Shown: positions 21,594 through 36,739 of the stretch, in pieces
Position numbering within the stretch: position 1 is the first letter of the stretch
How the letters are laid out: each line of letters begins with the position of its first letter
Notes under the pieces: model-generated
Told to the model about the DNA's origin: nothing
Databases searched by the model: none
What the model saw: only the letters and a program-made list of their open reading frames with translations
NCBI GenBank assembly: GCA_963665115.1
Contig: OY762007.1
Span: 5,344,001-5,408,000, forward strand
DNA length: 64,000 nucleotides
Origin: an uncultured Rivularia sp.
GTDB taxonomy: Bacteria > Cyanobacteriota > Cyanobacteriia > Cyanobacteriales > Nostocaceae
Direction of reading: 5' to 3'
Translations under genes and position numbers: made by a program

Positions 21594-23184
21594 GGTTCTT
21601 CAACACTTAGTATGCTAAAAATACATTAAAAAAAGTGAAAGTAAAGATTAAATAGCGCAAATTGACTCGTTAGAGCGGCGAATTGAACTACCGCTCCGCT
21701 TGATTCAATTGCGTTGAGACGGGCTTAAAATCAACTCGTAAAAACCCTAAATACTCATAGCCCGCCTCAACGCCGCTACGCTAATCGAATCATAGTTCAA
21801 TTCTTAAATATAAATAAGTATATCAAATAATTACTAAAAATAAAAAAACAACTGGCTTCGTGTTACTAGTTATAAAATAGATTTATAAAACCTGGTATAT
21901 CTTACTATAATGACTTCAAAAAAAGATATTAAAATATTAACACAACTACTGGATTTGTCAGGAATAAAAGTTATCTCACATCATCAATACAAAGGTGTTG
22001 GAATAATATTACAAATCGAATCAATTAATAATGAGAGTATCTGTCCCCGTTGTGGAAAAAAAAGTCATCATTTACATCAAAATCATAAATCTATAATTAA
22101 AGATTTACCTCTAGGAGAGCAACAAGTTTTTCTAGAAATAAATAAACGACAGTTTAAATGTCAAAAATGCCAAAAACCTTTTACAGAAGACTTATATTTT
22201 GTAGAAACAAGAAGAAAATATACCAAAAGGCTTAGCAATAAAGTAATAAAAGAAGTATTAGATTCAGATATTAATAGTGTTGCAGAAAAGGGTATTGTTA
22301 CTACTAGAGAAATAGAAAGAATGCTCAAAGATGCTTCAAATAATGCAATAATTAGAAAGCCTTCATATTTAAAAAGACTTGGTATTGATGAAATAGCTTT
22401 AGTTAAAGGTAAAGGAAATTACTGTGCTGTATTGGTAGATTTAGATAAGTCTGAATTAATTACAATTTTACCCCGAAGTTCACAAGAAATAATCAGAAAA
22501 GTACTTAATTCATGGGGAAAAGAAATTTTAGACCAAGTAGAGGAAGTAAGTATAGACTTATGGCGAGGTTATAAAAATATAGTTCATGAACTAATGCCAA
22601 ATGCACAAGTTGTTGCAGATAGATTTCATGTAATGACACAAATAAATCAAGAATTAGATAAGACTAGAAAATTAGAAAAACGAAAATTAGAAGATTTAAT
22701 CAAAAAATCTAAATCTAAATCTGATAAAGATGAATATGAAAAAATTCTAAATGGATTGAAAAAAAGTAAATATGCTTTACTAAAGAATGAATTAAATCTA
22801 AATGAAGAACAGAAGACAAAACTTGCTGAAGTTAAACAAGTATCTTCAAACCTAAAAATAATGCATGAACGGTCATGAGAACATCAGAATTATTTTTAAC
22901 GATACATATGATTGGTTAGCAGGACTCTTTAAACTTGGTATGTGGCTAGATCAAGCGAAAACATACTTTCCAGTTAGTCAGAAAACTATTATTCGGTGGA
23001 TTGATGAAATTATCGCCTACTTTGATAATGGTACAACTAGTGGTGTAGTTGAGGGCATTAATAATAAATTGAAACTTATTAAACGCTCGGGTTATGGATT
23101 TAGAAACTTTGATAATTTCAGAACTAGATGTTTACTTAATTGGCATTTAAAATGTTAGTTAAGCATACTAAGTGTTGAAGAACC
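21594..23184 (+). mobile_element. ISL3-family insertion sequence, 1591 bp
   Basis: Perfect 23-bp TIR GGTTCTTCAACACTTAGTATGCT; 8-bp TSD AAATATAA at 21586-21593 and 23185-23192. Confidence 0.95.
21910..23158 (+). CDS. ISL3 transposase (frameshift near 22870)
   Basis: Zn-finger CPRC/CQKC, GIDE, SIDL, ADRFHV, EGINNKLKLIKR.GYGF. Confidence 0.92.
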
Positions 23185-25226
23185 AAATATAATCAATTTA
23201 CTATCTTATTTATTTTCAGAACTTCGCAATCAAGATTTTTCTAATTTAAATATTAAACAAGCTAATTTACAGGGAATCAATTTAAGTAATATTGATTTTA
23301 GTAACAGTAATTTTATCAAACCAACTTTTACTAATAGCTTTGGAATTATTTTTAGTCTTGCTTTTAATAATGATGGAGAATATTTAGTTACAGGAAGTAT
23401 TGATGGTGAGGTTTGTTTATGGAAATGGCAAGAAAATCAATTAATATTTCAACATCAAGCACATAAAACTATAGTTGAGTCGGTTGCTTTTAGTCCCGAT
23501 TCTCAAAAAATAGCTAGTTCGAGTCGAGATAGAACGGTGAAATTATGGGATGCTGCTACTGGACAATGTATTTTAACGTTAAATTCACCAAATCAAAGTA
23601 TAGTTAAAAGTCTTATTTTTAATCAGCATGGAAATAAGTTATTTGGTTACTCGAACAAACAAATATTAATTTGGGATTTAGAGACGGGTACTTTTCATAT
23701 ATTAGTCGAATCTCAAAGTCCTATTTGTTCTCTAATTTCAACGATAGCTGATATTTTAATCTTTGGTTGTGAAGATGGTATGGTTTATATCTGGGATTTA
23801 AATACAGAAGCATTTATAAATCAATTTTCAACTAGTAGCGGCGTTGTTTTATCGGTTAGAGTTACTGATGATAATCAAATTTTAGCTTGCGGTATTAAAG
23901 ATAAGATTGTCAAAATTTGTAATTTAAATAATTCTGAATCTATACAAATACAATCTCAAAGTTATAATATCTCCTTGATTGATATTAATCGTAACGGACA
24001 ATATATAGCGACTGGTAGCGGAGAAAAAATTATTAAAGTATGGGATATTGATGCGGGTTTATATTTACAAAGTTTGTCGGGACATCTTTCAGAAATTAAC
24101 GCTATAACTTTCAGCAATACAAATAAAATATTAGCAACTGCTAGTGTCGATCGAACGGTAAAAATTTGGGATATCGCTACGGGAAAATGTCTGAAAACTT
24201 TACAAGGACGTGCAGACTTTGTTCATTCTGTGATATTTAGTAGCGATAATCGGACAATTATTAACGGTAGTCAGCATTCAATTAAATTTTGGGATGTAGA
24301 ATCTGGGCAATGTATATCTACTTTATTCAAAAGCAAAGATTGGTTTTCTTCAGTAATTATTAGTCCCGATGAAAAAACAATTGCTTGTGCAAATATTGGT
24401 AATGAAAATAATATTATCCGAATTTGGCAAGTAGAATCTTTAAATCAAAGCCATCAAATACCGAATAGAATCCTTACAGGACATGATGATAACATTTGGG
24501 CGATCGCCTTTAATTCTGATAGTACAAAAATAGTTAGCGGTAGTAGCGATAGAACAGTAAAAATCTGGAATTCTCAAACAGGACAATGTTTAAAAACCTT
24601 TTACGGCCATAATCGTCCGGTGCTTTCAGTTGCTTTTAGTCCGAATGGAAATACAATTGCTAGTTGTGGTGGTCATTCGATTATTAAACTTTGGAATATT
24701 GAAACTGGAGAATGCGATCGAACAATTCAAGAAAAAGCTTCTTATACTATTAAACTTAATTCCAACGGTTTAATTTTAGCTAGCGGACATACTAGCGGTA
24801 TTGTTAAACTTTGGGATACAAATAATGGTCAATGCATACAGACTTTAGGAAAACTTGGTAAACCAATTGTTTCTATAGCTTTTAGTCACGATGGTGAATT
24901 TATCGCTTATGGAAGTTACGACGGTACTGTAACTGTATGGGATATCAACAATAATAAATCTATTGCCATATTACAGGAAAATTTTTCTTCACCTTGGAGT
25001 CTCGCTTTTAGTAACTTTAGCCAATATTCAAATTTATTAGCTGTAGGTAGAGATAGCGAAGTTGTTCAAATTTGGGATATTAAAACGAGTAAGTTAGTTG
25101 CATTTATGAGAGGCGATCGCCATGCCGAAAAAGTTAATATCACAGGAGTTACGGGTTTGAACGCTTCAACTATTGCTTCTTTAAAAGAATTGGGAGCTTA
25201 TAGTTAACTGGTTTTTTCCAAACGTT

Positions 25227-28163: not shown

Positions 28164-28736
28164 ATGCAATCAGCAATTAATCTTTTCACGGTTGAGGAAT
28201 ACCTAGAATTAGAGAAAACCAGCGAAGTTCGTCACGAATACCTCGGTGGACAAATTTTTGCTATGTCTGGGGGTAGTAAAGAACATAATACTATTAGTTT
28301 AAATATTGCTAGCAGACTACGTTCTGATTTGAGAGGTGGTTCCTGTAGCGTATTCATGGCTGATATGAAAGTGAATATACGAGTAATCAATCAAAATAAA
28401 AATATATATTACTATCCCGATGTTGTTGTTAGCTGCGATTCTGATGATAAAGACCGTTATTCTTTAAATTATCCTTGTTTAATTATTGAAGTACTTTCAC
28501 CAAGTACAGAAATCACAGATAAACGAGAAAAATTTGTGAATTATCGTGATTTAGAAAGCTTGCAAGAATATGTTTTAATTTCTCAGAATGAAATCAAGAT
28601 AGAAGTTTATCGTCAAGATAATCAAGGGAATTGGTTAATGCAAACTTTGGGTAAAGATAATGAATTACATTTAAATTCGATTAACTTAACTCCAACAATG
28701 GCAGATATTTACGAAGATGTAATCAAAATAATATAG
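28164..28736 (+). CDS. Uma2 family protein
   Basis: AMSGGS..H, YYPDVVVSC, IIEVLSPST. Confidence 0.92.
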   Translation: MQSAINLFTVEEYLELEKTSEVRHEYLGGQIFAMSGGSKEHNTISLNIASRLRSDLRGGSCSVFMADMKVNIRVINQNKNIYYYPDVVVSCDSDDKDRYSLNYPCLIIEVLSPSTEITDKREKFVNYRDLESLQEYVLISQNEIKIEVYRQDNQGNWLMQTLGKDNELHLNSINLTPTMADIYEDVIKII

Positions 28737-28747
28737 GATAAATTATT

Positions 28748-29326
28748 ATGACTGCTTTAACTTTACAAATACCTCCTTCACTCAAATTTACAGATGAAGA
28801 ATTTGAGCAGATTGTCGAATTTAATCAAGAATTGCGTTTGGAATTAACTGCTGAAGGAAAATTAATTATTATGTCACCAACTGGGGGAGAAACGGGAAAC
28901 CGTAATTTTGAAATTTATATTGATTTAGGTATTTGGAACCGTAAATACCGTCTCGGAAAAGCTTTTGATTCTTCTACAGGTTTTAAACTTCCAAATGGTG
29001 CTACTCGTTCCCCCGATGCTTCTTGGATAAAAATGGAAAGATGGGAGGAACTCACACCACAACAAAGAAAGAAATATTTACCTTTGTGTCCCGATTTTGC
29101 TGTGGAATTAGTATCTGAAAGCGATGATGTGGAAGATACTAGAAAGAAGATGCAAGAGTATATTGAAAATGGTTTGAGGTTGGGTTGGTTAATTAATCCC
29201 AAAGATAAGCAGGTTGAAATTTATCGTGCTGGTAAGGAAGTTGAAATTTTAGATTCTCCAACAAGTTTATCTGGGGAAGATGTGCTGGAAGGGTTTAGTT
29301 TGGATTTACAAACAATTTTTGGATAA
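28748..29326 (+). CDS. Uma2 family protein (tandem copy 1)
   Basis: DSSTGFKLPNGATRSPDASW, CPDFAVEL, KMQEY, LGWLINP. Confidence 0.92.
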   Translation: MTALTLQIPPSLKFTDEEFEQIVEFNQELRLELTAEGKLIIMSPTGGETGNRNFEIYIDLGIWNRKYRLGKAFDSSTGFKLPNGATRSPDASWIKMERWEELTPQQRKKYLPLCPDFAVELVSESDDVEDTRKKMQEYIENGLRLGWLINPKDKQVEIYRAGKEVEILDSPTSLSGEDVLEGFSLDLQTIFG

Positions 29327-29340
29327 TTTCAATATTAATT

Positions 29341-29919
29341 ATGACTGCTTTAACTTTACAAATACCTCCTTCTCTCAAGTTTACAGACGAGGAATTTGAA
29401 CAAATAGTTGCTTTTAATCAAGAATTGCGTTTGGAATTAACTGCTGAAGGGGAATTAATTATTATGTCACCAACTGGAGGAGAAACGGGAAATCGTAATT
29501 TTGATTTAATTGGTCAAATATGGTTTTGGAGTCGTAAAAACAATTTAGGAAAAGCTTTCGATTCTTCTACGGGTTTTAAACTTCCAAATGGTGCTACTCG
29601 TTCCCCGGATGCTTCTTGGATAAAAATCGAAAGATGGGATGCTCTAACACCACAACAAAGAAAGAAATATTTACCTGTGTGTCCCGATTTTGCTGTGGAA
29701 TTAGTATCTGAAAGCGATGATGTGGAAGATACTAGAAAGAAGATGCGAGAGTATATTGAAAATGGTTTGAGATTGGGTTGGTTGATTAATCCTAAAGATA
29801 AGCAGGTGGAAATTTATCGTAGTGGTAAGGAAGTGGAAATTTTAGAATCTCCTACAAGTTTATCTGGGGAAGATGTGCTGGAAGATTTTAGTTTGGATTT
29901 AGAAATTATTTTTGGGTGA
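29341..29919 (+). CDS. Uma2 family protein (tandem copy 2)
   Basis: Near-identical paralogue of 28748-29326. Confidence 0.92.
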   Translation: MTALTLQIPPSLKFTDEEFEQIVAFNQELRLELTAEGELIIMSPTGGETGNRNFDLIGQIWFWSRKNNLGKAFDSSTGFKLPNGATRSPDASWIKIERWDALTPQQRKKYLPVCPDFAVELVSESDDVEDTRKKMREYIENGLRLGWLINPKDKQVEIYRSGKEVEILESPTSLSGEDVLEDFSLDLEIIFG

Positions 29920-29933
29920 ATTAAAAATTCATT

Positions 29934-30047
29934 ATGACAGCCTTAACATTACAAATACCTCCCTCACTTAAATTTACAGATGAAGAATTTGAGCAGATTG
30001 TCGAATTTAATCAAGAATTGCGTTATCTAATTGTAAAAAAACACTAA
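29934..30047 (+). pseudogene. Truncated third tandem Uma2 copy
   Basis: MTALTLQIPPSLKFTDEEFEQIVEFNQELR, then homology stops at ~30023. Confidence 0.85.
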
Positions 30048-30114
30048 AAAATTCGGAAAATTTTGTAATATGTTTGTAAACTTCAGTATTACTAATTAAG
30101 ATAGGTACAAACTC

Positions 30115-30573
30115 ATGGTAGAACCTTTAACGGCAGCAGTGATTGTCTCCTTATTTTTCTCTGAAGCAATTAAAGAAGGTGGAAAAACTTTAGGAAAAGG
30201 GATTGCAGATACATTTAGCAAACTGGTAAACACGATTCGAGAGAAGTTAAAGGCCGAAGGAACAGAAGGGTTATTGACACGAGCAGAAAAAGACCCCACG
30301 GAAGCTAATAAGGCAAAATTACAAGATGAATTACAAACACAAATAGATGGGGATGGTGCATTTGCTAATCAACTCAAACAGCTAGTAGAACAACTACAAG
30401 CACAGGATGAGAAAATACGTCAGGTAGTTCTAAGTGAAATTGAATTAACTGGAGATTTAAAGGCTCAAGATATTACTCAGAAAGCCGCTAAAGATGGTGC
30501 TGTTGAGCAGGAAATGATTAAAGGGGTGAAAGCTACAAACATTGATGTTGGTAATTTAAATCAAGAAGCTTAA
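30115..30573 (+). CDS. Putative Bell-like helical effector with C-terminal double amyloid-type motif
   Basis: Hydrophobic N-terminal helix, a ~100-aa helical domain, and two Q-bounded pseudo-repeats (res 103-122, 132-150). Confidence 0.65.
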   Translation: MVEPLTAAVIVSLFFSEAIKEGGKTLGKGIADTFSKLVNTIREKLKAEGTEGLLTRAEKDPTEANKAKLQDELQTQIDGDGAFANQLKQLVEQLQAQDEKIRQVVLSEIELTGDLKAQDITQKAAKDGAVEQEMIKGVKATNIDVGNLNQEA

Positions 30574-30577
30574 ACCA

Positions 30578-32666
30578 ATGAATCCCAATTCAGAAAATCG
30601 CAATACGCAAAAAGCGGTTGAGAATCTAAGAGCCAGTGGTAATATCACAATTGGAAATATTACCCAAAATATAAACAATTCGAGTAATCTTCCTAAACCA
30701 ATAGGTTCCCACCAAAACCTTCCCCGCAGTGGTGTAATTAAATTTGTCGGAAGAGAAGAAGTTTTAGAAACCTTACATCAGCAGTTACAAGAAAACGAAC
30801 GGGTAGCGATTTCGGCAATTACTGGTATGGGTGGTATCGGTAAAACAGAATTAGCGCTGCAATATGGCGATCGCCATTGCAAACAAGGTACATATTCTGG
30901 TGGGGTTTGTTGGTTTCGAGTACGCAATGAAGATGTCGGAATTCAAATTATTAATTTTGCCAGAGAAATCGGTTTACAACCACCAGATGATTTTGATTTA
31001 CTAAACAAGGTTAAATATTGTTGGCGAAATTGGCAAGCTGGTGATGTATTGGTAGTATTTGACGATGTGAGGGAATACGAGCAGATAAAAGACTATTTAC
31101 CTCCCAAAGAAGCACGATTTAAACTTTTAGTAACTACCAGACAGCAGTGGTTAGGACAATCATTTAAGAAAGTGATTTTAAAAGTATTAGATGAAAAATA
31201 TGCTTTAGAATTGCTTATGTCTTTTGTTGGGGAATCAAGAATTTATCAAGAAAAGGAAGAAGCGAAAAAACTTTGTGCTGATTTGGGATATTTACCTTTA
31301 GGTTTGGAATTAGTAGCAAGGTATTTACAGCGTAAACCAAATTTATCCCTGGTGGAAATGCGTCAAAGATTGGCTTTAGAACATCGTTCGCTCCAAGAAA
31401 CATCAGGGGACATGACAGCACAATTGGGAGTTAAGGCTGCTTTTGAATTAAGTTGGCGAGAATTAAATCAACATGGACAAGGATTAGGTTGTTGGTTAAG
31501 TGTTTTTGCTTTAGCTCCGATTCCTTGGGAATTAGTTGAGCGTTGTTTACCGCAAGAAGACAAGGAATATTTAGAAGATGTTAGAGATGATTTTTTAGTA
31601 AATTTCAGTTTACTGGAGGATAAAGGGGAAAATACTTATCAACTGCATCAGTTAATTCGAGAGTTTTTGATAGGTAAGCGCGAAGAGTTACCTTATGCTG
31701 AAAATATTAAACTTCGGTTTTGTGAGTTAATCGCTAAAATTGGACGGAAAATTTCTCCGATTCCTACTCAATTAGAAATTATAGAACTTACTCCAATAAT
31801 TCCTCATATTGTAGAAACTGCAACTAATTTAAAAAATTATTTAACTGATGAATATTTCATTTCTCCCTTTGCTGGCTTGAGTCGATTTTATCAAGGACAA
31901 GCAACTTATGAGCAAGCGTTACCTTGGTGCGAGCAATGTTTAGCGACTTGTAGAGAACGTTTTGGAGAAGAACATCTTTACGTTGCGACTAGTTCAAATA
32001 ATCTGGCTTTAATTTACGTTTCACAGGGACGCTACCAAGGAGCAGAAACCCTTTTACTCCAAGCTTTGCAAATAAATAAAAAACTGCTGGGTGAAGAACA
32101 TCTTGACGTTGCACTAAGTTTGAATAGTCTAGCTGGACTTTACTACTCTCAGAGATGCTATCAAAAAGCAGAACCTCTCTTCTTACAAGCTTTGCAAATA
32201 AATAAAAAACGACTAGGGGAAGAACATCTTGACGTTGCACTAAGTTTAAATAATTTGGCTGCATTTTACTACTCACAGGGACGTTACCAAGATGCAGAAC
32301 CCCTCTTCCTCCAAGCTTTGAAAATGTGGAAAAAACTGCTGGGAGAAGAAGACCCCCTACGTTGCAAATAGTTTGAATAATCTAGCAGGGCTTTACGTTT
32401 CACAGCTACGCTACCAAGAAGCAGAATCTCTTCACAAGCAAGCTTTGCAAATGAGAAAAAAACTGCTTGGAGAAGAACATCACGACGTTGCAAATAGTTT
32501 GAATAATCTGGCAGAACTTTACCATTCACAAGAGCGTTATGAAGAAGCAGAACCTCTTTATCTGCAAGCTTTATCAGTCGCTGAAAAAACATTGGGAATA
32601 AATCATCCTCACACTAATGCTATCCGTGAGAATCTGCAATATTTACGCGATGTTCACAATTCATAA
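30578..32666 (+). CDS. NB-ARC + TPR NLR-like receptor with short N-terminal motif (apparent +1 frameshift at CCCCC 32353-32357)
   Basis: FVGRE, GMGGIGKT, LVVFDDV, LVTTR, GYLPLGL, LHQLI, then 42-aa TPRs continuing in ORF 32373-32666. Confidence 0.9.
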
Positions 32667-33087
32667 TTTTAGGAAGCTGTTGTTCTTTTGGTGATATCAT
32701 TCCCTTTTTGCAAAAATATGAATTTAAAAAAACCGCAGAGACGCAGAGAACCCAGAGGAAAGAAATAAAGAGAGATAATTTAGAGCGGTATAGAATAAAT
32801 TTAGAATCAAAATGCTATTACTCTACTTTTATAAACCGCAAATAATTATAAAAAATTTGTGCAACAGGTTGTTGCACTATTAGTTTATTAAAATAACCTT
32901 CTGCAAAAGCCCTGCGTATAAAAAATTGAAACAAATTAATTCGTCCAACAACTTGTTGGGCTATTTCTCATTAACCCACGCAGGTGGGTTTTGCCCGTGT
33001 AGACAAGCCACTGCGTTGGGCGGGTTCCCCGACTTGTAGCAAGTGGCGCGCGGTTTCCAACCGCCAGGTAAAATATAAACCACACCA

Positions 33088-35355
33088 TCATTCCTGATAA
33101 ACCAAAACCGGAACTCTTTTAAAAGCCGGAGTACCGCAACGCTCTTCAACTTCCGCTTTAAATATCGCATTAACTTCCGGATAAAACATTACTCCGGCAC
33201 CTTCACGCACCTCTCCAAAAATAATTTCCACATTCTCTAATTCCCCCACATTTCCTCTTACATTAACCCGTTGATGTTGTCTAAACCCTGCTTTTCCAAC
33301 ATCATTTTTATTCATTAAAATACAGTTACGATGCGGTATTCCGCGATATTTATCTTCAGTTTGATAAACTACTGTATTATGTTGCGCGTAACTGCGTCCG
33401 GTCATTAATGCGACAACTATTCCTTGGGTACTATCGGCAACGTCAAAGTCTTTTATTTTAGGAAGTTTTAATTCTGGTAATGGTGTAACAAACATTTTGG
33501 CTTTACCGGAAGGTGTGGAAAATTTAGGACTTTTTAAAATTCTTCCTTCAATAGTAAATTCTTCTTCTGTTTTGTCAATCTCCCCGATTTTCTCGTATCC
33601 GGGAATTGTTTGAGCTATCAATTGTCTAACGTATTTAGTATCTTGTAATTTACGCCAGTTGACGGGATATTCACCATGTATTCGATGTGCTAATTCTGTA
33701 AGAAAATCAACTTCTGAAATCAAGTCGGATTTTTTGAGATGGGTTTCTCCTTCGTCGTTGAGTCTGACAAAGTTATTACCGGATTCAACTGTAGTTTTGT
33801 GAGGATTTTCAAAGCGGTTAAATACAGGAATAATAATCGTATTTTTATTAGCTAATCCGTGGAAATGTCCGAGGTTTGGTTTTGTTGCTAAATAAATGAT
33901 GGTTTCAATTTTATTTAGCGCTCTTTTTACTTTATTCAAATCGGGATTAGCAGCATATAAATTACCACCGACGCAAATTAATGTATCAACTTTGCCAGCG
34001 TCAGCAGCTTCAATTAAAGCGTGGGTATCGTATCCTTTGACTTTGGAGAGCGATCGCCCTAATATTTTTTCTAATGCTTGTTGAATTTCTTTTTTAAGCC
34101 TTACCGTGACACCCATTGAGCCGAAACCTTGGACGTTTGAATGTCCCCGTATCGGCATGACTCCAGCACCTTCTTTACCGATATTACCAGTCATCAAAGC
34201 GGTATTGACAATACTATAAATGTTATCAACACCGTTTTTTTGCTGAGTAATTCCCATAGCCCAAGCAAATACAACTTTTTGAGAATTAATAATTATATTC
34301 GCAGCGGTTTCAATTTCTATTTGAGACACACCGCAAATAGAAGTAATCTTATCCCAACTTGTATTTTCGACATGATTAATTACCGCTTGCCAATCTTCGG
34401 TATAAGCTTGTAAAAACTCATTTTTAATTTTACCTTTTGCTAATAAATATTTTTGAATTCCTGTAAATAATCCCACATCGCTACCGGGAATTGGCTGTAA
34501 ATAAATTGAAGCAATATCCGAACCTGTAAACAATGAATTTAAAAAAGCAGGGGAAGCAAATTTTTCTAAACCAACTTCCTTCATTGGATTAATTACAATT
34601 ATTTTCCCTCCACGCTCCCTTAATTTAATCAATTCATTCATCAACCGGGGATGATTGTAAGCAGCATTTGAACCAGCTAATACAATGCAATCCGCTTGTT
34701 TCAAACTTTCTAAACTAACAATAGAAGTACCAGTACCAAGAGTTTGTTTCAATCCAAAACTCGAAGGAGCATGACATAAATCCGAACAGTCAGCTAAATT
34801 ATTAGAACCCAAAGTTCTCATCATTAACTGTAATAAAAATGCCGCTTCATTAGATGAACGCCCGGAACTGTAAGAAGCTATTCTCTCCGGGGTTTTAGCA
34901 AAAGCTCGATCGCAAATACTATAAATTTCATTCCACGAAATACGTTCGTAATGCGACTTCCCCGCACGCAAAATTACAGGGAAACTCCATCTTCCCAATC
35001 TATCAGCTTCTCGTGAAGTTAATTGCTGCAATTTTTCAATATTTCGCTGTTGAAAAAACTGCTTGGGAATCGCTGGTTGAATTTCTGCTGAAATCGACTC
35101 AACACTCTTCATACACCGCTGCAACTTTTCCCCTTCTTCGTTAGTAAAACCACCTTTTTGTCCACCAGTACCCCAAGCACAAGATAAACAAGCGCTTTTA
35201 TGCAATAAAGTTTTCCAAAGTTTGACTCCTTCGGGTGACAAAGTATGTTCAGCCCAATAGCCGATAATAGGTAAACCTCCACCCATATCCGGTGCATTTT
35301 CGTTTGTATTGTCAAATGTCGGAGTTGGTTTGGGGTAGGAATTATCTTTATTCAT
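33088..35355 (-). CDS. FdhF/YdeP family molybdopterin oxidoreductase
   Basis: CLSCAW, YSSGRSSNEAAF, DCSDLCH, PIRGHSNVQG, GRSYAQHNT. Confidence 0.9.
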   Translation of the reverse strand: MNKDNSYPKPTPTFDNTNENAPDMGGGLPIIGYWAEHTLSPEGVKLWKTLLHKSACLSCAWGTGGQKGGFTNEEGEKLQRCMKSVESISAEIQPAIPKQFFQQRNIEKLQQLTSREADRLGRWSFPVILRAGKSHYERISWNEIYSICDRAFAKTPERIASYSSGRSSNEAAFLLQLMMRTLGSNNLADCSDLCHAPSSFGLKQTLGTGTSIVSLESLKQADCIVLAGSNAAYNHPRLMNELIKLRERGGKIIVINPMKEVGLEKFASPAFLNSLFTGSDIASIYLQPIPGSDVGLFTGIQKYLLAKGKIKNEFLQAYTEDWQAVINHVENTSWDKITSICGVSQIEIETAANIIINSQKVVFAWAMGITQQKNGVDNIYSIVNTALMTGNIGKEGAGVMPIRGHSNVQGFGSMGVTVRLKKEIQQALEKILGRSLSKVKGYDTHALIEAADAGKVDTLICVGGNLYAANPDLNKVKRALNKIETIIYLATKPNLGHFHGLANKNTIIIPVFNRFENPHKTTVESGNNFVRLNDEGETHLKKSDLISEVDFLTELAHRIHGEYPVNWRKLQDTKYVRQLIAQTIPGYEKIGEIDKTEEEFTIEGRILKSPKFSTPSGKAKMFVTPLPELKLPKIKDFDVADSTQGIVVALMTGRSYAQHNTVVYQTEDKYRGIPHRNCILMNKNDVGKAGFRQHQRVNVRGNVGELENVEIIFGEVREGAGVMFYPEVNAIFKAEVEERCGTPAFKRVPVLVYQE

Positions 35356-35565
35356 ATGACTTACCAATAATAAGAAGGTAGCGAACATCTCTAAGGTGCC
35401 CACTCTCTTCTTTATATATAGAATCACTATTAATAAATGGAACGTTATACACCATCAGCAATCGGATAATCTCGCATCTTCCTACCTGCATCGGTTCAAA
35501 CGCTGCTCATAGCGACTGATAGGCTTAACATATGAGTCCTATAAAACAAACTTTATTAAAAAAAC

Positions 35566-35656: not shown

Positions 35657-36739
35657 ATGACAACCACATTACAAAGACGCGAAAGCGCATCAGCGTGGGA
35701 GCAGTTCTGTGGGTGGATTACAAGCACCAATAACCGTTTATACATCGGTTGGTTTGGTATGTTGATGATTCCTACCCTCTTAGCTGCTACCACCTGTTTC
35801 ATCATCGCTTTTGTTGCAGCACCTCCTGTTGACATCGATGGTATCCGCGAGCCTGTTGCAGGTTCGTTGATTTACGGAAACAACATCATCTCCGGTGCTG
35901 TTGTTCCTTCTTCTAACGCTATTGGTTTGCACTTCTACCCAATCTGGGAAGCAGCTTCTCTAGATGAGTGGTTGTACAACGGTGGTCCTTACCAGTTGGT
36001 ATGTTTCCACTTCCTAATTGGCGTATTTTGCTACTTAGGTCGTGAGTGGGAATTATCTTACCGCTTGGGTATGCGTCCTTGGATCTGTGTTGCATTCTCT
36101 GCTCCAGTAGCAGCAGCAACCGCAGTATTCTTGATCTACCCCATTGGACAAGGCTCTTTCTCTGACGGTATGCCTTTAGGTATTTCTGGTACCTTTAACT
36201 TCATGTTCGTGTTCCAAGCTGAACACAACATTTTGATGCACCCCTTCCACCAGTTAGGTGTTGCAGGTGTATTCGGCGGAAGCTTATTCAGTGCAATGCA
36301 CGGTTCTTTGGTAACTTCAAGTTTGGTACGTGAAACAACTGAAACCGAATCTCAGAACTACGGTTACAAATTCGGTCAAGAAGAAGAAACTTACAACATC
36401 GTAGCTGCACACGGTTACTTTGGTCGTTTGATCTTCCAATACGCTTCCTTCAACAACAGCCGTAGCTTGCACTTCTTCTTAGCAGCATGGCCTGTAGTAG
36501 GAATCTGGTTTACCGCTTTGGGAATCAGCACAATGGCGTTCAACTTGAACGGTTTCAACTTCAACCAGTCAGTAATCGATTCTAGCGGTAGAGTTGTAAA
36601 TACCTGGGCTGATGTATTGAACAGAGCTAACTTGGGTATGGAAGTAATGCACGAGCGTAACGCTCACAACTTCCCACTTGATTTGGCTGCTGGCGAAACT
36701 GCTCCTGTAGCAATCAGCGCTCCCGCAATCAACGGTTAA
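35657..36739 (+). CDS. psbA: Photosystem II D1 protein, standard O2-evolving form with Glu130 (D1:2 type)
   Basis: 360 aa; Y161, D170, E189, H332, E333, D342 and A344 present; GREWEL. Confidence 0.99.

Follow-up and report, generated by a model that had tools for sequence, protein, structure and literature searches.

A BASS4-type Bell/NLR gene pair with a receptor gene of mosaic origin in an uncultured Rivularia

The gene pair described here lies in a 64,000-nucleotide stretch of DNA (contig OY762007.1; hereafter the window) from an uncultured Rivularia sp., a cyanobacterium. The effector gene (30115..30573, + strand) encodes 152 amino acids, a Bell-type helical domain followed by two BASS4 pseudo-repeats. 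It has 218 homologs at E ≤ 1e-3 and 69 genome loci, and the named loci are cyanobacterial. According to the ORF reading, the receptor gene (R0-NB-ARC-TPR, an NLR of probably 695 aa; 30578..32666, +) starts on the same strand after a gap of 4 bp. The effector length and the spacing are thus as claimed in the original prediction, which had been made by reading the window alone. Three Uma2-family genes (28164..29919, +) and a molybdopterin oxidoreductase gene (33088..35427, −) form the left and right sides of a variable slot around the pair, and the gene at 35657, one that we take to be psbA-like, fits a cyanobacterial host, as do the named homolog loci. Elsewhere in the window (21910-25207), split transposase-like ORFs lie directly 5' of a WD40 repeat ORF without an N-terminus, possibly an interrupted WD40 NLR.

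The effector opens with a hydrophobic helix (30115..30174, +) with a MEPIS-like start and an acidic residue at position 3, E3, which is invariant among 37 effector homologs. This helix, which had been claimed from the sequence, supplies the protein's most hydrophobic 19-mer (KD 1.64), is modelled by AF2 at residues 7-20 and is predicted to insert into membranes. With 81 diverse homologs aligned, AF2 predicted five helices (7-20, 28-47, 51-59, 63-79 and 81-97), corresponding to a domain of aa 1-97 (30115..30405, +), and two copies of one strand pattern in the tail, at aa 101-123 and 130-151; the mean pLDDT of the model was 82.6. With a shallow alignment of 37 close homologs the tail was disordered (pLDDT < 50). 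Read from secondary structure, the strand pattern of the deeper model is as expected for a two-rung beta-solenoid, with matching predicted rungs over the two repeats, in line with the stacked beta-solenoid that had been suggested for the repeats. The domain has the features expected of a Bell domain: it comprises five helices in ~100 aa, the first of them hydrophobic, and the second or third residue is acidic. The first-helix criterion is that of Dyrka 2020 (10.1101/2020.01.06.895854) and Ibarlosa 2024 (10.1101/2024.11.07.622273).

Database searches gave the domain no other name. No Pfam or NCBIfam family exceeded its cut-off for the effector and PADLOC named none; at the pair, PADLOC matched no system beyond a weak TPR match. 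A PDB sequence search returned coiled-coil noise only, and Foldseek found nothing at E ≤ 1e-3 for the effector model, the tail being barely probed in the fold searches. The best matches in VIA fold searches (Z 6.0 and 5.8) stood among unrelated bundles, and neither MLKL (Z 4.0, rank 47) nor a plant resistosome chain (Z 5.4, among ties) was counted as evidence. Bab (9H9V) was absent from the matches listed in these searches, and no distinct fold match to a reference Bell, Babybell, HeLo or MLKL domain emerged from them; the family libraries scanned hold no Bell profile. Labels such as 'Fis family transcriptional regulator', given to homologs in their source records, were rejected as unsupported. 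HetE-N, present in 18% of the members of the effector's Atlas neighbour cluster, was not upheld either: PF20701 does not match this gene, and the available text of PMC8195603 does not mention it. The same helical domain also carries other amyloid-like tails and occurs fused to TIR, alpha/beta-hydrolase, CHAT, EAD4 and GUN4 domains.

Repeats R1 (30421..30480, +) and R2 (30508..30564, +) occupy the effector tail, and a single repeat of the same type, R0 (30608..30667, +), stands at the receptor N-terminus; all three read exactly as first reported. Their claimed alignment is above chance for R0, with global scores of 40 against R2 and 26 against R1, each reached by 0 of 5,000 shuffles, while the likeness of R1 to R2 is weaker (score 12, reached by 1.4% of shuffles). 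Plain local alignment was non-discriminating: a score of 40 was reached by 13 of 7,141 N-termini in the genome, this NLR and 12 other ORFs, and the BASS7-type tail of a different effector from the same genome gives R0 a score of 40 as well. Such matches would be expected if the three segments were low-complexity ends, rich in N, Q, G and I, that resemble one another by chance. Profile scores argue against this. An effector-repeat HMM built from other genomes only placed this NLR first among the 7,141 ORF N-termini of the genome, narrowly ahead of the next (9.8 versus 8.4 bits), and none of the 483 control N-termini taken from the loci scored as high (control maximum 6.1). An R0 HMM built without this R0 gave 28.3 bits for this NLR against a maximum of 5.1 among the 483 controls, with only the locus itself removed and close relatives kept in the profile. 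Chance is hardly credible in view also of the presence of the motif in the published BASS4 set, and is refuted by the synteny counts of effector homologs (both below). At four loci (L011, L013, L015 and L056), R0 is preceded on the receptor by an extra N/Q/G-rich segment, which may give that receptor a second amyloid motif.

Whether the motif was catalogued or new had been left as a question, and the published peptides answer it: judged by sequence, R0, R1 and R2 are BASS4, already catalogued. Cluster C06, which the README of supplement 1 of PMC8086366 equates with BASS4, contains peptides near-identical to R1, R2 and R0 in the part of the supplement available to us. The assignment was made by eye against C06_s015, s060, s043 (the match for R2), s093 (of the same type as R0) and the NLR-side entries. 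Among the latter, C06_OYE01066.1 corresponds to the receptor N-terminus at L004 and C06_BAZ20405.1 to that at L013; the effectors of these two pairs share 82% and 78% identity, respectively, with that of the window. The tails of an 81%-identical homolog (P0062) are found in the published Bell-side set. As C06 holds both near-identical peptides and the receptors of close homologs, the pair belongs to a known family and, on these sequence matches, is an expected member of the published BASS4 Bell/NLR pairs. It shares with them the motif, the effector-to-receptor order, the short gap, the NB-ARC-TPR receptor, the doubled effector-side repeat and the cyanobacterial host. It differs from them in its NB-ARC-TPR body, which comes from a clade fused to CHAT in congeners.

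According to the available text of PMC8086366, BASS4 frequently occurs in repeated form in the Bell partner, as HET-s does, and has HET-s as its closest grammar match. Of the bacterial motifs, BASS4 bears the closest likeness to the two-repeat HET-s prion. Dyrka 2020 (10.1101/2020.01.06.895854) gives a general account of pseudorepeats, of partners with CHAT and TIR, and of all-in-one architectures, and the portion available reports prion behaviour and fibrils for BASS1 and BASS3 and an enrichment of Bell/NLR pairs in multicellular bacteria. Ibarlosa 2024 (10.1101/2024.11.07.622273) describes the function of Bell/NLR pairs as still to be worked out. No experimental work on BASS4 was found in the available text of these three sources.

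We looked for R0 beside the effector homologs, calling it wherever the first 70 residues of an ORF matched the R0 profile above all controls. An R0-bearing ORF lay no more than 800 nt downstream of 51 of the 55 full-length effectors. The exceptions were two loci with none (L012 and L020), one at a contig end (L030) and one with a divergent R0 below the threshold (L040). Among the 14 broken or altered effectors, only one had such a neighbour (L056), and there the effector repeats are kept in a shifted frame. Homologous genes are therefore syntenic elsewhere and co-conserve the motif, as the original prediction would have it. NB-ARC domains like that of the window's receptor were present in 42 of 52 partners, and in 30 of the 52 the gap to the effector is exactly 4 bp.

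The covariation of the motifs, proposed in the same prediction, held for one repeat and failed for the other. In the 29 pairs left by dereplication at 80%, R0 is closer to its own R2 than to the R2 of others (permutation p = 1e-4; p = 0.015-0.03 after dropping the 2-5 most divergent pairs), in a test inflated by linkage (the two are 43 nt apart in one cassette) and by kinship of the pairs. R0 did not covary with its own R1 (p = 0.28, 29 pairs), and at three loci (L042, L043 and L051) it matched its own effector poorly (rank 22-25 of 29). Covariation with R2 only would fit a finite complex in which R0 caps the R1-R2 beta-solenoid and no self-propagating amyloid forms; the folding of R1-R2 within the AF2 monomer and the many charged residues of the repeats point the same way. 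However, single-chain AF2 models cannot separate a monomer from one layer of a fibril, and every BASS motif tested in the literature available to us (1, 3 and 11) forms fibrils and transmissible foci, making a capped complex unlikely.

Several R0 partners are of other kinds. One kind consists of R0-bearing TPR proteins that lack a Walker A motif and have 1-4 hydrophobic segments (L025:5543-7567, L032:5467-7668, L037:5449-7239, L038:5477-7249 and L057:5733-7070), which from their sequences are possible transmembrane, NTPase-free BASS4 receptors. A second, non-NLR type is a protein of ~170 aa with no Pfam family, overlapping an uncharacterised ORF of ~420 aa (L031:5443-7219, L033:559-2311 and L085-L087). 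Further types occur at L040 (235 aa) and L059 (HEAT repeats). At L089:1983-2634 an inserted two-gene module, which we presume to resemble a PIN toxin–antitoxin pair, separates a BASS4 effector from its R0-NLR.

In the window's receptor, R0 precedes an NB-ARC domain (30755..31366, +; PF00931, E = 8e-18, aa 60-263) and a TPR_10/TPR_12 array (31985..32612, +) that is the likely sensor. The NTPase motifs are intact, and their positions on the + strand are those of what we take to be Walker A (30824), Walker B (31049), a GLPL-like motif (31286) and an MHD-like motif (31637). Upstream of the NTPase region Pfam matched no family, consistent with the claim that the receptor lacks an effector domain of its own. 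As assembled, the frame stops at 32371 (597 aa), after four TPR_10 stretches, and two more follow in another frame (32373-32666). The break maps to one extra base in a C5 run at 32353. This base is missing from the contigs of two sequencing runs (X1 and X2) out of four, the X3 contig breaks exactly there and X6 does not cover the position; the runs belong to one study, possibly the assembly's own source. Since the contigs of two runs do without the extra base, the break is likely an assembly error and the gene intact at 695 aa, and a true pseudogene break is unlikely.

The receptor gene is mosaic in origin. Its NB-ARC is 87% identical to that of a CHAT-NB-ARC-TPR NLR in a congener (G011), with which it groups in a quick tree (SH-aLRT 99), but at most 57% identical to that of any BASS4-paired receptor, and 48-55% identical to the receptors whose effectors are at least 75% identical to this one. 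The same NB-ARC-TPR body is found in G032 (87%; a CHAT form, at this slot) and in a TIR-fused NLR of G027 (60%); these all-in-one NLRs differ from the window pair in having a fused, enzymatic effector and no amyloid relay. At the DNA level, positions 30578-30712 are 72% identical to L007, 69% to L002 and 40% to G011, whereas positions 30713-30800 are 61-62% identical to L007 and L002 and 90% to G011. The shift places a likely recombination junction, in frame, at 30713..30718 (+), where the effector-R0 cassette meets the NB-ARC-TPR body. Given the sharp junction and an NB-ARC so close to that of a CHAT-fused NLR, the cassette was likely recombined onto this receptor body, and recently.

The slot between the Uma2 genes and the oxidoreductase (window 28164-35427; L080, L081 and L104-L114) is a variable hot spot, which among congeners is empty or holds Trypco2-CHAT-NLR, remnants or other genes. 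In G010 and G011 Trypco2 and the CHAT gene directly follow the same Uma2 gene. Nineteen further congener stretches beside the oxidoreductase contained Uma2 (11), Trypco2 (3), a CHAT head (2) and NB-ARC (2; whole in G032, partial in G038), and in none of them was there a Bell gene; deleted remnants occupy the slot in G010, G038 and G005. In the simplest history, by unrooted comparison of these sequences, a Trypco2-CHAT head would have given way to the effector-R0 cassette. Because the cassette was likely recombined onto a body that congeners fuse to CHAT, the effector-R1-R2-R0-linker unit is likely an exchangeable output arm. The same receptor body with a protease head in congeners makes a matched natural pair, in which one can ask whether an amyloid relay and a fused enzyme are interchangeable, and what the TPRs sense. 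A recent mosaic junction, a frame break in the assembly, remnants at the slot and broken effectors at 14 of 69 homologous loci could also describe a non-functional chimera or a decaying locus. We find this very improbable: the extra base is missing from the contigs of two runs, the junction is in frame, and the NTPase motifs, R0, R1, R2 and the 4-bp spacing are all intact.

We therefore read the pair, with a probability of roughly 0.7, as a BASS4-type Bell/NLR functioning as an amyloid-relayed cell-death switch. Synteny, the presence of R0 beside intact effectors and the predicted fold support the HET-S/NWD2-like Bell/BASS logic put forward in the original prediction. In such a switch the receptor TPRs would sense a cue, likely foreign or from an invader, upon which the NB-ARC would oligomerise. 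The clustered R0 would then template R1-R2 of the effector into the predicted two-rung beta-solenoid, and hydrophobic helix 1, once freed, would damage the membrane. Amyloid templating is suggested by analogy with the BASS1 and BASS3 prions and with BASS11 in Bab/Agp; membrane damage and a role in abortive infection or phage defence are suggested by relatives, including Bab/Agp.

The available text on Bab/Agp (BASS11; 10.1101/2024.11.07.622273) describes an amyloid Abi system in which beta-breakers and a change in helix 1 abolish T5 resistance. It shares with the window pair a small helical effector with a MEPIS-like first helix and a C-terminal motif, and an adjacent receptor with an N-terminal motif. 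It differs in that the receptor is TPR-GreA/B-PIN and not an NLR, the motif is another one and the effector domain is shorter (~80 aa); its function is proven, whereas that of the window pair would follow by analogy. The relay could be real with a trigger or output other than phage-induced death, such as developmental sacrifice or non-self recognition in filaments. The enrichment of Bell/NLR pairs in multicellular bacteria would suit such roles, no ligand is known and PADLOC gave no match; yet Bab kills infected cells (10.1101/2024.11.07.622273, in the part available) and the turnover of the slot among congeners, between empty, Trypco2-CHAT and remnant states, resembles that of a defence hot spot. 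We consider such roles quite unlikely. HET-S/NWD2 (HRAM) likewise has R0 on an NLR and two pseudo-repeats on a helical effector, but its NLR, NWD2, is NACHT-type and its effector domain HeLo, going by the available text of 10.1101/2024.11.07.622273. No Pfam, PDB-sequence or fold match to HeLo or HET-s(218-289) was listed for our effector, with the tail barely probed by fold, so we describe the pair as HET-S-like in working and do not file it under HRAM/HeLo.

The genome (G000) carries two further Bell/NLR loci, and three motif types coexist in it. At one of these (L082; G000:C1:3088391-3092255), a Bell ORF ends in TGA, a stop that the run contigs bear out. Beyond it the frame stays open into an NB-ARC, and no start codon lies between the stop and the P-loop. 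The same junction recurs at six congener loci; at two of them (L094 and L101) an ATG lies in frame upstream of the P-loop. A 30-nt post-stop pattern, which excludes the stop codon itself and by its design favours a stem, was found in 28 of 401 genomes from 10 families, compared with 2 for a reversed control. Of 36 matches, 30 loci were fetched, and 29 have an in-frame stop directly before the pattern (21 TGA, 8 TAG). A Bell-like ORF with varied tails precedes the stop at 20 of the 21 TGA loci. The eight TAG loci, spread over six genomes that belong to a single family, have an upstream ORF that is not Bell; in the single one scanned, it has an alpha/beta-hydrolase-like domain. Twenty-six of the 29 have an in-frame P-loop downstream, and in 22 of these 26 no ATG precedes it (ATG was the only start codon scored).

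A 5-bp stem lies 8 nt after the stop, a spacing that resembles that of viral readthrough signals. In 29 distinct rows, aligned without the stop-less locus L143, it is paired in 145 of 145 cells, and double-sided changes at two of its five pairs were reached by 0 of 500 shuffles. ARAGORN listed no tRNA-Sec in G000, Rfam gave no credible match for the element, and no description of the architecture was found in the literature searched. The best reading of the stop and hairpin, as a candidate drawn from sequence comparison, is programmed readthrough; the data would also be compatible with re-initiation from a non-standard codon or with a site of DNA recombination at the junction. Readthrough does not apply to the window's own junction, where the two genes are in different frames; the hairpin is absent from the whole window, as it is from 69 of 69 BASS4 loci.

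One gene of the one-frame form would yield both a free Bell-amyloid effector and a Bell-amyloid-NLR receptor with an identical motif. It is somewhat probable, in our view, that cyanobacterial NB-ARC-TPR sensors are served by three exchangeable output wirings: CHAT-fused, BASS4 amyloid-split and one-frame with readthrough by design. If true, readthrough would guarantee the identity of the receptor and effector motifs and set their ratio via translation, many such NLRs would be mis-annotated as truncated genes or pseudogenes, and the architecture would matter more than the window pair. Loci with a Bell (or hydrolase-like) ORF and an NLR in one frame are L082, L092-L096, L101 and L125-L154. The other additional locus of the genome (L083; G000:C1:3134115-3137916) is a regular Bell/NLR pair with a BASS7-type motif, by comparison with C12 peptides in the available part of the published set, and its TPR array also has a frame break in the assembly.
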